Assembly: GCF_003790525.1 (NCBI RefSeq)
Contig: NZ_CP033635.1
Source of the DNA: Escherichia coli
GTDB lineage: Bacteria; Pseudomonadota; Gammaproteobacteria; Enterobacterales; Enterobacteriaceae
Strand: one strand, 5' to 3'
Length of the DNA stretch: 64,000 bases
The position numbers and the translations under genes are program-made. Below the pieces are notes generated by a model. The model was not told the origin of the DNA, did no database searches, and saw nothing but the letters and a program-made list of their open reading frames with translations. Positions within the stretch are counted from its first letter, which is position 1. Every line of letters starts with the position of its first letter. Below, in pieces: positions 18,660 to 23,719 of the stretch.

Positions 18660-18863
18660 TCACCATCTCTCACTTTTACTACTCACTTTTTAAAGCGTCT
18701 CGCTTCGTCTCACTTGAGATTTTTGTGTTTTGTATGTGCATGTTTCATAAGTGTTTTTTCACTGCTCACTTTTGAGCATGTATACAGGTGAGAAAGTGAG
18801 TAATTGTGTTAATATTTTGTAAAAACCTCACCATTACTCACTTTTACTACTCACTTTTTACAG
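18660..18863. repeat. Iteron cluster, putative satellite replication origin
   Basis: TCACTTTTACTACTCACTTTTTA at 18669-18695 and again at 18837-18863. Extra CTCACTT(T)GAG copies and an inverted AAAGTGAGTA in between. Lies immediately 3' of the primase/rep gene. Confidence 0.55.
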
Positions 18864-20264
18864 TGGTCCTACATCATCACCATCAATGTAAATCACGGCG
18901 TCTTTTTCCAGTTTGGCTAACCATCGCCGCATATTTTTCACGTCATACCCAAGCCGTTTCATGTCATCACGTAACAGCGGGATCGTGCACTTGTCGCCGT
19001 TCTGTGTGCGTGAACGGATGCACCCCCATAGCGCGGTATGGTTTTCCGTCTTGTTGCCTGCCTCCTCGATGCGCTCCAGTTCAGCAGGGGCGCGGGGAAC
19101 GTCAATCACCACCATGGACACAATTTCTTCGCCATCTGTATCGGTGAACACCTCCACGCTTTTAAGGTCGTATGCACTCTCTTTTGGCTCCTCTGCGTCC
19201 TTCATCTTCGTACACGCCGCAACCAGTGCTGTAACGTCTGAATTTTCCCTGCTGATTCGGTACTCTGCATCAAGCGCGGCACGGAATGCACTGGAACCAC
19301 GCGCCCCCTTTGTTTCATCCTTGCCGGAATGGTGAACCACCAGCACCGTGGCCCCTGTGGCCTGCTTTATCGCGTCACACCCCTGGATAAATGCGCCCAT
19401 ATCACGGGAATCATTTTCATCATTCCCACCAAAGCAACGGGCCAGCGTGTCGATCACAATCAGCCGCACATTTTCGCCCGTTCTGCTCTTAACAAGTCCG
19501 GCAGTCCTGATAACCTGCTCCACATAGTCAGGCGATGCAGGGAAAACAGGCGCGTTAATGATGCACAAATCTGTAACCACCTTGTCGTGGGTTATCTCCC
19601 ACGCCTTAACGCGGCGTTTTACGCCCATGCTGCCTTCACCAGCGATATAGATAACCGCACCCTTACTTACCCTGCGGCCTCCCCATGCCATACCTGTGGC
19701 AACATGGCACGACCAGGAAATGGCGAGGAACGATTTATAAGAACCGCTGGCCCCGTAGGTGCTGCATAATGACTCAGCCGGAATAAGCCCCTTAATGACG
19801 TAGCTTTGCTGCGCATCGAATCCCTCAGAACCCCATGAGATGGGAAGTGTGATTTTTCGCTTTCCGCCATTCATGACCAGGCTTTCCCCTCTCTCCCATG
19901 TTTCCCGTAGTCGTGGTAGCTGGTCGCTCCAGTCCTCCAGCAGTTCGAAATTTTCAGAAAGTAGCCGCGCCTCCTGGACTCCGGCGATCGCCAGTTTTGT
20001 GGCAATGGTCAGCATCTGCATATCGTCCAGGTTTCCGGCGCGTATGACCTTTACCCTGTATCGTCCTTCATCAACAATCTGTAAGTTGTCCAGTTCGCTT
20101 AACTGATAACGGCCCAGATAAACCGGAGGGATGGGATCGCCTGCTTTTTTGGCCTGTGCAATCATGTAATGTTCTGCAAAGGAGTGAGCATTATCACCCG
20201 CAAAAATAACCGCCTCAGTGTGTTTATCTTTCGGTAACAGTTTTACGTTCGGTGCAAGTTTCAT
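18858..20264 (-). CDS. Replication initiator, primase/RecA-like ATPase (AAA_25/RepA-like C-terminal half), 468 aa
   Basis: C-terminal half has P-loop-like GASGSYKS, Walker-B-like LIVIDTL and VLVVHHSGKD, as in RepA-like/AAA_25 satellite replication proteins. Iterons lie immediately downstream. Confidence 0.6.
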   Translation of the reverse strand: MKLAPNVKLLPKDKHTEAVIFAGDNAHSFAEHYMIAQAKKAGDPIPPVYLGRYQLSELDNLQIVDEGRYRVKVIRAGNLDDMQMLTIATKLAIAGVQEARLLSENFELLEDWSDQLPRLRETWERGESLVMNGGKRKITLPISWGSEGFDAQQSYVIKGLIPAESLCSTYGASGSYKSFLAISWSCHVATGMAWGGRRVSKGAVIYIAGEGSMGVKRRVKAWEITHDKVVTDLCIINAPVFPASPDYVEQVIRTAGLVKSRTGENVRLIVIDTLARCFGGNDENDSRDMGAFIQGCDAIKQATGATVLVVHHSGKDETKGARGSSAFRAALDAEYRISRENSDVTALVAACTKMKDAEEPKESAYDLKSVEVFTDTDGEEIVSMVVIDVPRAPAELERIEEAGNKTENHTALWGCIRSRTQNGDKCTIPLLRDDMKRLGYDVKNMRRWLAKLEKDAVIYIDGDDVGPL

Positions 20265-20548
20265 TTCTTACCCCCTGCGACCAGCATTTCACGGATTTTG
20301 CGGATATAACTTGCAGCACGTTTCTGATTAACGGCTTTACGATGGCCCACCAGCGTGAAATCACGCCGGAACTGATAAACAGGCATAACGCAGTCATATT
20401 CGTAGCCTTCACGGCGGTAAGTGATGCGACGTTCCTCCACGCCCTTAATCATTACCGTGCCGCCGTAGTTATCACGGAAAATATCGCCGGGACGGATTTC
20501 AGGACGAGCGGGGCCGCTGGCATTAACGCCAGAATTTTTATTTTTCAT
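20261..20548 (-). CDS. Hypothetical protein, 95 aa
   Basis: Start overlaps the primase gene start. No family recognised. Confidence 0.4.
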   Translation of the reverse strand: MKNKNSGVNASGPARPEIRPGDIFRDNYGGTVMIKGVEERRITYRREGYEYDCVMPVYQFRRDFTLVGHRKAVNQKRAASYIRKIREMLVAGGKK

Positions 20549-20553
20549 GTTTT

Positions 20554-20823
20554 TTATTCTCCGGTGTGCTGTTCTTTATATCTGTCGTGAATTGCCATCA
20601 CTGTATTTAATTCATTAATAACAGCCGTTAATAGCGTACGCACGGCAGAAAACATCATTGAATCAGATTCATCGCCACTTTCCTGCACATCAATTAAATT
20701 AAGTAGTAATGCGTCCATTTCCTTTGCGCGGATTAATGCCTTTTCACAATGAAAAATAACACCAAAGGGTATTTTATTCATGACTCCCCTCCTGACGGAT
20801 ACGGGCGGCGAATACAGCGACAC
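20554..20823 (-). CDS. Hypothetical protein, 75-89 aa (probable start at internal MNKIPFGVIFHCEK)
   Basis: Compact ORF, first gene of the minus-strand replication block. Confidence 0.35.
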   Translation of the reverse strand: MSLYSPPVSVRRGVMNKIPFGVIFHCEKALIRAKEMDALLLNLIDVQESGDESDSMMFSAVRTLLTAVINELNTVMAIHDRYKEQHTGE

Positions 20824-21061
20824 AACCGGACGGGCAACGGTTACGCGCTTCGCGTTCCGTCCAGGCGGTCACGTGGATAATTTGAGATTCTCCGGCACTC
20901 AGTGCCAGAAAACGCCACACAAAGGCGGTTTGTGTGTGCGCTAGTCGTGGGGTATGCTGTGTTCCAGCCATAATCGTTACTCCTGTTAACGGTTTGGTTA
21001 GACGCCCTGCATGTGTTACAGCACTGCGGGGCGTTGTCTTTTTAACGGCTTTCGTGATAGG

Positions 21062-21104
21062 GTGTACACCTATCAAGCAAAAACATAACGCTATAGGTGT
21101 ACAC
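21062..21104 (+). promoter_or_regulatory. Operator: perfect 12-bp inverted repeat GTGTACACCTAT-N19-ATAGGTGTACAC abutting the ATG of the Arc-like gene
   Basis: Exact reverse-complementary 12-mers, each with a GTGTACAC palindromic core. Confidence 0.5.
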
Positions 21105-21299
21105 ATGTCAACAGTTATTAAGCGAGATAAAAAACCAAAGGGAACAGGAAAAGCCCCCCCATTCCATATGCGAATAGCTCCAGAACTGAAAGAGCAGTTT
21201 GATAATGAGGCCAGCAATGATGGGGTAAGCCTAGCCAACTGGCTTAAAGAGTTGGGGCGCGCCGAACTAAAGCGACGCGGCATTGAACCTAAAGGCTGA
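21105..21299 (+). CDS. Arc/MetJ-like ribbon-helix-helix DNA-binding protein, 64 aa
   Basis: PPFHMRIAPELKEQFDNEASNDGVSLANWLKEL parallels the Arc beta-strand/helix region (PQFNLRWPREVLDLVRKVAEENGRSVNSEIYQRV). The only gene on the plus strand in this part of the island. Confidence 0.55.
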   Translation: MSTVIKRDKKPKGTGKAPPFHMRIAPELKEQFDNEASNDGVSLANWLKELGRAELKRRGIEPKG

Positions 21300-21580
21300 T
21301 GTATGACTGAAAAGCAGACCGATAACAAACTTTCTCTACCAGAGAATAAACCAGCAGGCTTCTTACCAAGAAAAATCCTTGATGAGATCAAACGCCGCCA
21401 GCGCCGCAAGGCCAAAGAGCAGGAATAGCCCACCAGCAAGCCAGCACACTGATCACATTGGCCACCGTGACAGGTGGCCTTTTCTTTGCCCGTTATCCGG
21501 CAATTGTGGCGCTTCGCCACACGGTTGATATAATTCCCCTGCTCAGATTCATTTTTTGCGCGGCAGGTAAATTGTTCAGA

Positions 21581-21612
21581 AAGGCGGCTCCTTATCGGGG
21601 CCGCTTTTTTTA
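21581..21612 (+). terminator. Rho-independent terminator (GGCGGCTCC…GGGGCCGC plus TTTTTTT). A second hairpin lies at 21461-21490.
   Basis: GC stem followed by a T7 run on the plus strand, downstream of the Arc-like gene. Confidence 0.45.
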
Positions 21613-21752
21613 TGTCTGAAAAACCGCGATTTTGTTGTTTTTCAGTTTCACCAGGCCGAACGAAGCCCCGCCCATGTTCGGGCGTATATCCAGTCTTCAT
21701 GGTTAAATCTCTGTATTAGTGGATGGGTGGCGGCTGTGTGCCGCCAGTCTTT

Positions 21753-21941
21753 TTAGTGAACTGCCTCGCAGCTTTCCTTCCATGCCAGAACTTCGGATAA
21801 AGACCAGCCAACGGAACGACCGCCCAGCTTACGCCGTGATGGGAATTGTCCGGCCTTTTCCAGGCGGTAGCGGCATGAGCGGCTAAGGCCTGTTAGCTTT
21901 TCGCATTCTTTTTCACGTATAAAGCGATCAGTGCTTAACAC
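21753..21941 (-). CDS. alpA: AlpA-family phage regulatory protein, 62 aa
   Basis: …LTGLSRSCRYRLEKAGQFP…SVGWSLSEVLAWKESC follows the AlpA/Xis-like HTH signature as I recall it. Sits downstream of int, as in E. coli PICIs and P4-like elements. Confidence 0.7.
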   Translation of the reverse strand: MLSTDRFIREKECEKLTGLSRSCRYRLEKAGQFPSRRKLGGRSVGWSLSEVLAWKESCEAVH

Positions 21942-22315: not shown

Positions 22316-23566
22316 TTATTTTCTTCTGGCTACTGGTAGCGTGGTTACGTTTTCATGTGCTCCCGCCAGTATCTCCAACCGCTCCACCCACATATCCAGC
22401 GCATTGCGTTTCGCATCCAGATAACGGGAATGATTATAAACTCGCTGCATTCCTGGCATCTGGTGGCCTGTAAGCTGCTCCACGACGTGAGGATCCACGC
22501 CTAAATCGTTCAGCATCGTTGTAAAGGTGCGCCGGATGTCATGCAGTGACCATTGAGGGTGTTTTAGCCTCCTGTGCGCTAATCTGCCGTACTGCGATAC
22601 GCTGGCCTCCTGTTTCACTTCCCCCAGTAATAAGCCCGTGTGCCTGTTCTGCTCCACCAGCCGCGTGACGAACGGCAGGATCGCTTCCGGTATGGGCCGG
22701 AATATTGCGACCTTCGTTTTGCTGTGCTCCTTCGGAACGGTCCAGAGCATTTCCGTGAAATCCCACTCCCCGATCTCCGATAACCTCAGTTCTACCGTCC
22801 TGGCTCCGAAGACAATCAGGAGGCGGATTAGTGCGACGTAGTAAGGGGAAAATATTTTTTTGTCCAGTGCCTGCAATAATTCGCCCAGTTCTTTGGTGCT
22901 TAAGACACGTTCGCTTATATCCGGTTTTTTCCCAACGTCCGCCACGTTCAGATCGTCCAGAACGTTGCTGATTGCATAGCGCCGCCTCCGGCAAAACTTA
23001 AGCGCCTGTTTGCACGCCTGTAGCACGAATCCGGCAGTAACAGGCGTTCGCTTTGCCACCCGATCAAAACAGGCCAGCCAGTGCCGTAGCTCGCATTTAT
23101 CCAGCGGCATAGCACCAATGTGCTGTATTACGTGATTATTAAGTCGCCTTTTCAGGGCGATATAATCCACGCGGTTTTCCTTTACGTAAGACTCAAGCCA
23201 GTAGGTGAGCGCATCTCCAACCGTTACAGGCTTTAACGCTTCCTGCATGGTGTAATTCATCTCATGACGTGGATTTTTCCCCTCAGCCAGCCATGCGCGA
23301 CACTGGGCGGCTTTTTCCCTGGCTGATTTCAGGCTCAGATCAGGATAATTTCCCAGCTTAATACGTTCCGGTCGTGTCTCTCTTCCCGTTCCGGCCCTGT
23401 AAGTGAAATACCAGGTTAAAAGGCCGCTGGTTGAATGCCTGACGCTCAGATTTCCACCGTCATTAAGAAAGGCTGTTTTTTGGGCGGGTGTGCCGTTGAT
23501 TTTCCTTAGCTGTGTATCGCTCAGCTTGTTAAGTGCTCTGGTCATAATTTTGAATCCGGTCATCAC
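22316..23566 (-). CDS. int: P4-family tyrosine integrase (probable start at MTRALNKLSD, ~23545)
   Basis: N-terminal arm-binding domain (KLSD..L…GG.L.V…G…W.FRY), C-terminal catalytic residues (…HDIRRT……GHQMPGMQRVYNHS). Adjacent to attR. Confidence 0.9.
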   Translation of the reverse strand: MMTGFKIMTRALNKLSDTQLRKINGTPAQKTAFLNDGGNLSVRHSTSGLLTWYFTYRAGTGRETRPERIKLGNYPDLSLKSAREKAAQCRAWLAEGKNPRHEMNYTMQEALKPVTVGDALTYWLESYVKENRVDYIALKRRLNNHVIQHIGAMPLDKCELRHWLACFDRVAKRTPVTAGFVLQACKQALKFCRRRRYAISNVLDDLNVADVGKKPDISERVLSTKELGELLQALDKKIFSPYYVALIRLLIVFGARTVELRLSEIGEWDFTEMLWTVPKEHSKTKVAIFRPIPEAILPFVTRLVEQNRHTGLLLGEVKQEASVSQYGRLAHRRLKHPQWSLHDIRRTFTTMLNDLGVDPHVVEQLTGHQMPGMQRVYNHSRYLDAKRNALDMWVERLEILAGAHENVTTLPVARRK

Positions 23567-23591
23567 AATTAACTACACCATTAACTACACC
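23567..23591 (+). repeat. Tandem TTAACTACACC x2 arm-type site, right arm
   Basis: Identical to 12366-12390. Lies at the int start codon, so Int may regulate its own promoter here. Confidence 0.55.
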
Positions 23592-23719
23592 GATCGTTGC
23601 ACAAAGGGCTACAACGTGAAACAAGCTGGAACAAGAAAAATCACAAATTTGTTTATAATCAAAAACATAATGCACAACCTGAAACATTATGAAACGGCAA
23701 AAAACACTAATTGATAAAG

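Follow-up and report, generated by a model that had tools for sequence, protein, structure and literature searches.

A probable Arc-like repressor with two operator boxes inside overlapping divergent promoters of an Escherichia coli phage satellite

A stretch of 64,000 nucleotides of Escherichia coli DNA (NCBI RefSeq assembly GCF_003790525.1, contig NZ_CP033635.1; below, the window) carries, at positions 21062-21299, an inverted repeat that runs directly into the start codon of a small plus-strand gene encoding a ribbon-helix-helix (RHH) protein of 64 amino acids (aa). This arrangement raises the question of what the repeat does, and of how a gene whose start codon abuts such a repeat is transcribed and translated. 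The comparison of related loci described here suggests that the protein is probably an Arc-type repressor acting on two boxes, which lie inside the predicted overlapping promoters P_L (leftward) and P_R (rightward) and through which it would shut off an operon with replication genes as well as its own gene. The coordinates of the features are collected in Table 1.

The RHH protein and its two putative operator boxes

The 64-aa protein is an Arc-like RHH protein. This identity, already proposed in an initial annotation made from the sequence alone, was borne out by P22 Arc being the best match in the PDB by both sequence profile (E-value 0.0016 for a profile built from 22 relatives) and fold. 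Its first 18 residues make up a basic arm, after which come a beta-strand at about residues 19-25 (PPFHMRI) and two helices (residues 26-38 and 43-57), and it is matched by PHROG 228, named 'Arc-like repressor', with an E-value of 6.9e-6. The profile alignment sets KGtGKaPaFkMRiapeL on KGMSKMPQFNLRWPREV of Arc, with residues 19, 21 and 23 on Gln9, Asn11 and Arg13, which are the residues that contact bases in the Arc-operator crystal structure 1PAR. Arg23 is invariant among the RHH relatives, which form a small family of 28 clusters at 90% identity, nearly all of its members being 61-64 aa long. In the AlphaFold2 (AF2) model, which has a mean predicted local distance difference test (pLDDT) value of 79, both helices are predicted at pLDDT above 90; residues 1-25 are without regular structure in this monomer model, and the strand is not formed. 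The 50 top matches in a Foldseek search against the PDB were all RHH proteins, with Arc first, followed by NikA, CopA, AmrZ and CopG. The Pfam Arc family (PF03869) gave no match to the protein at E <= 0.1.

The perfect inverted repeat adjoining the ATG, which had been noticed in the initial annotation, is real, as both a reading of the sequence and a repeat finder showed. Its arms, GTGTACACCTAT (21062-21073) and ATAGGTGTACAC (21093-21104), are 12 nt long each, 100% complementary and separated by 19 nt, and the ATG of the RHH gene at 21105 lies directly 3' of the right arm. Each arm contains the 8-mer GTGTACAC, itself palindromic, which across the 64 kb is found solely at these two sites (2 copies versus 0.57 expected, with two or more in 9 of 100 shuffles). 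Perfect 12-nt inverted repeats with a loop of at most 40 nt are present at five loci in the window, compared to 0.17 expected from Markov-1 simulations, and those other than the one studied here resemble terminators or origin repeats. Because the window has five such loci, the repeat by itself is only moderately unusual, and the decisive evidence comes from conservation. A scan of one genome per species yielded 72 loci, about 62 of them with a full RHH relative, and 60 non-redundant loci were aligned on the start codon for the analysis of the boxes. In these 60 loci the right box runs exactly up to the start codon.

The roughly 60 related loci from Enterobacterales, together with one Pasteurella satellite, share a layout of two boxes of 8-10 bp with the sequence GGT-NNNN-ACC, located 31-35 bp apart (35 bp here). 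The start codon is directly preceded by the 8-bp form GT-NNNN-AC, and the flanks TAGG and CCTA are conserved. In the window the left box is part of the left arm and corresponds to the predicted positions -8 to -1 of P_R and +7 to +14 of P_L, while the right box is part of the right arm and is located in the P_L spacer, next to the -35 element. The outer GT/AC bases are constant, and the inner four bases vary by locus group, tracking residues 19 and 21 of the protein. Given as residue 19..residue 21, the pairings are P..H with GTGTACAC, Q..R with GTGACCAC, Q..K with GTGGCCAC, H..K with GTGCCCCC or GGGGCCCC, T..Q with GTACGTAC, A..Q with GTGTGTAC or GTACAYAC, M/L..N with GTATAGAC or GTCTATAC, and I..S with GTATGGAC or GTCCATAC. 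The observed mutual information between box core and residues was reached by 0 of 5000 permutations, an outcome that is not a true probability because the loci share descent. In the Q..R class the non-palindromic core has the same orientation in both boxes, and in one locus (L016) it is inverted, which fits symmetric dimers on each box and not a hairpin. The Pasteurella satellite Pmp8 has the same layout, with the RHH sequence PQYQMRL and its own boxes GGTAATTACC and GGTATATACC. The covariation of the box core with beta-strand residues 19 and 21 makes it very probable that the palindrome is the operator of the RHH protein, as had been suggested initially, and the comparative evidence for both boxes as its putative operators is strong. 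A search for extra copies of the operator with GGTGTACACC at up to two mismatches gave 23 matches in comparison with 19.7 expected, none of them near alpA or int.

Some contigs carry two cassettes of this kind. The operator and recognition classes differ between the two in the pairs L024/L037 and L014/L019, with L035/L045 being less certain, and are the same in L049/L053. The differing classes on one contig hint at a diversification that avoids cross-regulation. E. coli strain A33 has five copies of the cassette.

Predicted overlapping promoters, antisense RNA and translation start

Codons 1-3 of the RHH gene read NTG TCA A, and the sequence TGTCAA is nearly invariant in the 60 loci. Ser2 is encoded by TCA in 58 of 58 cases and Thr3 by all four of its codons, a pattern that shows a constraint at the nucleotide level on a predicted -35 element inside the RHH codons. 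The right box would abut the start codon because the consensus -35 element of P_L (TTGACA) is made from codons 1-3. At the key positions of the predicted P_L -10 element, A(-23) and T(-19), conservation is 78% each, and nAnnnT is present there in nearly all loci. On this reading of the sequence, P_L must be the promoter that transcribes the leader, the gene for a host cell division inhibitor-like (Icd-like) protein and the replication genes. As to P_R, TAnnnT is found at positions -47 to -44 in 45 of the 60 loci, in 41 of them with a preceding TGn and in some as TATAAT, and the resulting TGnTAnnnT element abuts the left box. An RHH promoter with a plus-strand -10 element in the central spacer was rejected, since TAnnnT is present there in just 12 of 60 loci and its -35 element would have to lie at a distance of 21 nt; A(-23) and T(-19) themselves are compatible with either strand. 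The divergence of the RHH gene from the replication block, as initially described, holds in so far as the gene is on the opposite strand and overlaps the promoter of the operon with the replication genes, but the Icd-like gene in between (20971->20774) had been overlooked. Nor is the RHH gene the sole plus-strand gene of this region, as had been stated, because it is followed by a 41-aa open reading frame (ORF; 21303-21428) and preceded by a SymR-like antisense RNA (20966-~21045).

This predicted cis-antisense RNA corresponds to a full-length match (1-77) of the Rfam family SymR (RF01809) with 24.7 bits, which is under the gathering score of 61, and a local E-value of 0.0089. The match came from a permissive scan only, as Rfam at gathering thresholds reported nothing in the window, and SymR was not found in a permissive scan of the Enterobacter wuhouensis locus L052. 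The match in the window begins with AGCCAT, which is antisense to the start codon of the Icd-like gene, and in 55 of 55 distinct loci TAnnnT is located exactly 7 nt before AGCCAT, inside the leftward ORF; in the window this -10 element is TATGCT (20953-20958). The terminator hairpin of the RNA (21002-21034) is followed by a T-run. Of 57 distinct loci, nearly all have a strong hairpin; the stems come in 53 different sequences, and 35 of the 57 loci have a good U-tail as well. Hairpin 1 bears the anti-Shine-Dalgarno sequence CUCCU and shows compensatory changes in RNAalifold, which recovered this hairpin alone because MAFFT misaligned the variable terminator stems; the latter were assessed by single-sequence folding.

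From the anatomy of the locus, the fold, the covariation of boxes with residues and the constraint on the -35 element at the nucleotide level, all of which sequence and comparison show, we infer the binding, the transcription start sites, the repression and the release of the lock. Dimers of the RHH protein would bind the two (pseudo)palindromic GGT-NNNN-ACC boxes, in the window GGTGTACACC, spaced by 35 bp. P_L, whose -35 element comes from RHH codons 1-3, whose -10 element falls in the 19 nt between the arms and whose predicted start shortly precedes the left box, would transcribe the Icd-like gene and the satellite replication genes, while P_R, through the extended -10 element abutting the left box, would give an RHH transcript with a leader of about 35 nt, whose Shine-Dalgarno (SD) sequence AGGUG is in the right box. 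Because P_L and P_R overlap, occupied boxes should block both promoters, and the replication operon and the RHH gene itself would be shut off, the latter by autoregulation. The SymR-like antisense RNA would provide the first leftward gene with a second lock, at the level of translation. We estimate the probability of this Arc-type repression from two boxes in overlapping divergent promoters at about 0.72.

Several points weigh against it. Both promoters are predictions based on consensus sequences, and the P_L -10 element is weak, with only the window version passing a simple promoter scanner. The kinship of the loci by descent means that the permutation test overstates their independence, although at least eight distinct specificity classes are still present. 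The position of the left box shifts between -43 and -39, and a clear left box is missing in a few loci. The stoichiometry could be either one dimer per box or Arc-like tetramers on an extended palindrome. Moreover, because the island has just two boxes, the RHH protein cannot directly control alpA or int.

How the RHH gene is translated bears on two other explanations of the repeat. The N-terminal sequence MSTxIKRDKxPKGxGKxP is kept among the relatives, whose genes use five different codons for the invariant Arg7 and both possible codons for Asp8. The N-terminal arm is thus under selection at the protein level, and translation begins at the codon abutting the repeat. A start at the internal Met (HMRIAPEL), the alternative named at the outset, was rejected, as many relatives have Ile or Val in place of this Met and the arm is kept as protein with synonymous codons. 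The initial annotation had also seen no room for an SD sequence and had considered leaderless translation, that is, an RHH mRNA with its 5' end at the A of the ATG. The repeat does extend to the base before the ATG, and a canonical GGAGG is absent. However, AGGTG within the right arm, 5 nt before the ATG, complements CACCU of the 16S rRNA 3' end with a predicted energy of -6.3 kcal/mol, and this correctly spaced sequence is strongest in the relatives with a TTG start (AGGTGA or AGGTGG, predicted -8.5 and -7.6 kcal/mol, respectively). The start codons next to 49 distinct upstream regions are 40 ATG, seven TTG, one CTG and one GTG. Leaderless translation in E. coli reportedly needs a 5' AUG (Van Etten & Janssen 1998), and a leaderless RHH mRNA is highly improbable because nine of the 49 relatives begin with other codons. 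In addition, the related loci have no conserved -10 element 7 nt before the ATG, that position being filled by the right operator box, and with the TGnTAnnnT element the predicted leader is about 35 nt long. The repeat could alternatively act as RNA, by folding into a hairpin within the RHH mRNA or the leader of the leftward transcript, which would mask the SD sequence and provide translational or attenuation control instead of an operator. Such a hairpin has a predicted stability of -20.4 kcal/mol if both arms are transcribed, CACCU in the left arm mimics an anti-SD sequence, and the arms co-vary between loci. Yet only 6 of 42 distinct arm pairs are perfect, and the mismatches have no strand-specific preference for G-U (33 G-U, 25 A-C and 53 other). 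The same-orientation cores of the Q..R class break the centre of the stem, and it is protein residues that the box core tracks. The full hairpin would also be absent from the RHH mRNA because the predicted P_R start falls inside the left arm. On balance the hairpin is an unlikely explanation.

The nature of the gene product could also be seen differently. In the near-identical strain CM2 (99.9% identical) RefSeq names the protein 'HicB family antitoxin', which would make it a type II antitoxin that autoregulates a toxin-antitoxin operon, and the Pfam HicB family (PF05534) does match weakly, with 17.3 bits for the window protein and 27.9 bits for its L052 relative. The former value is, however, under the Pfam cutoff of 21, and Pfam detected no HicA or other toxin family in the ten flanking ORFs. 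Among these, the 41-aa ORF and the ORF 20554-20823, the first one to the left past the Icd-like gene, are both without a Pfam family. The 41-aa ORF is barely conserved (5 homologue clusters), and the genes downstream vary between loci. The HicB N-terminal toxin-binding domain was not found in the AF2 model of the 64-aa protein, which is composed of the RHH domain and the 18-residue arm only. Since both the HicA partner and this domain are missing, it is very unlikely that the protein is a HicB antitoxin. The other proposal is that the real gene is the minus-strand ORF 20774-21700 of 308 aa, with the RHH ORF as its shadow. Its length speaks for this ORF, as does the annotation of an equivalent in O157:H7, where RefSeq lists a 247-aa opposite-strand ORF (WP_001304194.1; L002 4174-4917, minus strand) and the 63-aa, TTG-start RHH gene is unannotated. 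On the other hand, the antisense frame is open across the RHH gene in just 21 of 61 distinct loci, and the RHH frame is maintained in different genera and encodes a protein with an RHH fold and a match to Arc. Because the wobble positions of the two frames coincide, stops in the antisense frame arise only at rare Tyr, His or Gln codons of the RHH gene. The 308-aa ORF was rejected as a shadow ORF, and we find its claim to be the real gene scarcely credible. The preferred reading is that of an Arc-type repressor with two operator boxes.

Table 1. Positions of the repressor gene, its predicted control elements and neighbouring genes in the window
Feature	Position	Strand	Details	Basis
RHH repressor gene, Arc-like	21105..21299	+	64 aa	ORF list, PHROG, PDB profile, AF2, Foldseek
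Left operator box (putative)	21061..21070	.	GGTGTACACC; core GT-GTAC-AC, 21062-21069	Repeat finder, comparison
Right operator box (putative)	21096..21105	.	GGTGTACAC(A); core 21097-21104	Repeat finder, promoter scan, comparison
P_L -35 element (predicted)	21106..21111	-	TTGACA; bases 2-7 of the RHH coding sequence	Promoter scan, conservation
P_L -10 element (predicted)	21082..21087	-	TATGTT; 18-nt spacer; predicted start ~21075	Promoter scan, conservation
P_R extended -10 element (candidate)	21055..21063	+	TGaTAGGGT; predicted start ~21070; leader ~35 nt	Conservation
SD-like sequence of the RHH gene	21095..21099	+	AGGTG, in the right arm; 5 nt from the ATG	Predicted duplex with 16S 3' end
SymR-like cis-antisense RNA (predicted)	20966..~21045	+	Over start codon and SD of the Icd-like gene	Rfam, conservation
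Icd-like gene	20774..20971	-	Strong SD AGGAG; first gene of the leftward operon	RefSeq of 99.9% identical strain
Remainder of the leftward operon	18858..20781	-	phrog_2196 gene (ATG 20781), DUF4222 gene, RepA-family AAA_25 helicase gene (20264->18858)	Pfam, PHROG, RefSeq
41-aa ORF	21303..21428	+	Co-oriented with the RHH gene; intrinsic terminator 21460-21479 behind	ORF list
alpA (Phage_AlpA family)	21753..21941	-	Convergent with the RHH operon	Pfam PF05930, E 5e-18
Tyrosine integrase gene of the island	22316..23566	-		ORF list, RefSeq

The island and the distribution of the cassette

The RHH gene is located in an island of about 11.2 kb between 26-bp direct repeats at 12366-12391 and 23567-23592 (AATTAACTACACCATTAACTACACCG), which are candidate attL/attR sites; the island interrupts the 5' end of tqsA, next to pntB. 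Its genes are ordered as integrase and alpA on the minus strand, the RHH gene and the 41-aa ORF on the plus strand, and then, again on the minus strand, those for the Icd-like protein, phrog_2196, DUF4222, the RepA-family helicase, SSB and PerC, beyond which the major head protein, a head decoration protein and the small terminase are encoded. The island is a phage satellite of the phage-inducible chromosomal island (PICI) type. The phrog_2196 gene in the ORF 20554-20823 most likely starts at ATG 20781, which is preceded by the SD sequence GGAGGGGAG, and not at GTG 20823. Just downstream of the RepA helicase gene, at 18650-18860, at least six copies of TACTCACTTT are present in both orientations, among them a 37-nt direct repeat and a 12-16 nt inverted repeat (18793-18808/18829-18844); this array may be the replication origin of the island, of the iteron type. 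From the terminator of the RHH operon to alpA (21480-21750), about 270 bp are conserved with O157:H7 and end in a second plus-strand terminator (21728-21746). This segment is without a convincing ORF and may hold another small RNA or a regulatory site.

A copy of the RHH region, 76-79% identical, was found in a 15-kb O157:H7 island between phoQ and roxA. The genes of that island (int, alpA, primase, SSB, PerC, capsid, protease, portal, connectors, HNH, TerS and TerL) fit the published capsid-forming PICI (cf-PICI) EcCIEDL933 (10.1101/2022.09.08.507074). Of 5426 complete E. coli genomes, 243, mostly O157:H7, have the cassette and 1175 the Icd-like module. In all related loci the leftward gene begins 131-143 nt from the RHH start. 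This gene is Icd-like in satellites. In about 22 loci its product is a toxin of the SymE family, in about 15 it is a 176-aa protein, and in a few the gene is of another kind. The loci with SymE or the 176-aa protein are without satellite genes; the RHH gene, boxes, promoters and antisense RNA form a portable cassette and not a satellite-specific device. Pfam gave no family for the Icd-like gene, nor for the 176-aa, 159-aa, 245-aa and 116-aa left-hand genes of the relatives. A mechanism of the phage P4 CI-RNA type was dropped, as the Icd-like protein and its leader have no similarity to P4 detectable by tblastn and blastn against X51522.

Outside the Enterobacterales, the 15-kb satellite-like Pasteurella sequence Pmp8 (OR544139.1; L077 3340-3700) has a SymR-like leader and ATGTCAAC besides the boxes and RHH sequence given above, which indicates that the design reaches beyond this order. 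In Enterobacter wuhouensis (L052, 3544-6771), a SymE-family toxin and a RhuM protein are encoded to the left, and an AAA_21 ATPase and an HNH protein after the RHH gene; the ATPase/HNH pair resembles a Septu-like defence pair.

Wherever the cassette is in a satellite, alpA converges with the RHH gene. In Yersinia loci alpA is located about 70-80 bp past the RHH stop codon, with no obvious minus-strand terminator in between, and we hypothesize from this proximity that AlpA-driven transcription could run antisense through the RHH gene into the operon. In the window, a terminator-like hairpin with a T-run is present on the minus strand inside the RHH coding region (21141-21165, codons ~12-20), with a weaker equivalent in the O157 copy. 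It could halt leftward read-through from alpA just before P_L.

The initial annotation had gone further and regarded the RHH protein as the master repressor that keeps the whole satellite quiescent until a helper-phage signal inactivates it, in the manner of Stl/Rpr. This extension is compatible with repression from the two boxes, and several observations speak for it. The RHH gene is divergent from the replication operon, with the boxes over the promoter of that operon; the cassette is present both in the O157:H7 island matching EcCIEDL933 and in the Pasteurella satellite; and no global repressor is known for Gram-negative PICIs (PMC6092414). Against it stand the absence of boxes near alpA or int in the island and the fact that EcCIEDL933 induction, which is described via AlpA only, requires alpA (10.1101/2022.09.08.507074). 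Furthermore, most E. coli PICI-like islands with the Icd-like module have no RHH gene (1175 genomes versus 243), and the same cassette guards SymE toxin genes and the 176-aa gene family outside satellites, which means that a link to a helper is not intrinsic to the cassette. The role of master repressor is plausible, though less likely than not.

A broader proposal is equally tentative. The RHH protein might be the missing repressor in a subset of Gram-negative phage-inducible islands, including the cf-PICI prototype EcCIEDL933, and together with the SymR-like RNA it might form a portable two-layer 'lock cassette'. This cassette would have at least eight specificities, resembling immunity types, would have been recombined before replication modules, SymE toxins and other genes, and would be released by AlpA-driven convergent transcription or by a helper anti-repressor.

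These observations matter in three respects. An RHH repressor, often unannotated, with operators over the replication promoter would offer a handle on the silence of satellites and on its override by AlpA or a helper. Two beta-strand residues that covary one-to-one with the 4 bp of an operator core offer, in compact form, natural data on the rules of DNA recognition by RHH proteins. The comparison also exposes a recurrent annotation error, in which O157:H7 genomes carry the 247-aa antisense ORF instead of the 63-aa TTG-start gene.

Comparison with known systems

The proposed mechanism is of a known kind. The literature searched contained no description of the architecture, of its coupling to a SymR-like RNA, of the way specificity has diversified, or of an occurrence in PICIs, the cf-PICI prototype among them. 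In Salmonella phage P22, the Arc operator lies between the -35 and -10 elements of a promoter belonging to an overlapping divergent pair, and one repressor affects both promoters. The locus in the window resembles this immI system (Pant/Pmnt) in having a small RHH protein, which matches Arc best and aligns with it at Gln9, Asn11 and Arg13, and in the placement of the putative operators within overlapping divergent promoters, both of which a single repressor would affect. It is different in that there are two boxes 31-35 bp apart, whereas Arc binds one 21-bp operator as a tetramer. Here, moreover, the target -35 element would be built from the first codons of the repressor and the putative operator contains the SD sequence; the protein has no match to the Pfam Arc model, and the host is a phage satellite or a toxin locus and not a phage anti-repressor switch.

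SymE/SymR of E. coli K-12 is a type I toxin-antitoxin system, with LexA as its transcriptional repressor (Kawano et al. 2007, PMC1891008). The likeness consists in a cis-antisense RNA that covers the start codon and SD sequence of the leftward gene and has its promoter inside that ORF, in a SymE-family toxin being the leftward gene in about 22 related loci, and in multilayered control by a transcriptional repressor and an antisense RNA. In contrast to K-12, the role of LexA would be taken here by a dedicated divergent RHH protein, and the guarded gene in the window is Icd-like, with an Rfam SymR score of 24.7 against the gathering score of 61. RHH genes were also described in operons with some SymE genes, and not as a divergent cassette (Kawano et al. 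2007, PMC1891008).

The Stl/Rpr regulators of Gram-positive PICIs, such as the Staphylococcus aureus pathogenicity islands (SaPIs), are likewise encoded divergently from the excision/replication operon, but they control essentially the whole island and are inactivated by specific helper proteins (PMC6092414). Unlike the Stl/Rpr islands, Gram-negative PICIs including EcCIEDL933 need the activator AlpA (PMC6092414; 10.1101/2022.09.08.507074). The autorepressors CopG, omega, ParG, AtaR and CopA-SO have the same fold, as seen in further Foldseek matches, and act at short repeated or palindromic sites over their own promoters. The RHH gene of the window differs from them in having no partner toxin and no partition or copy-control context, and in that its pair of boxes flanks the predicted -10 element of a divergent promoter.

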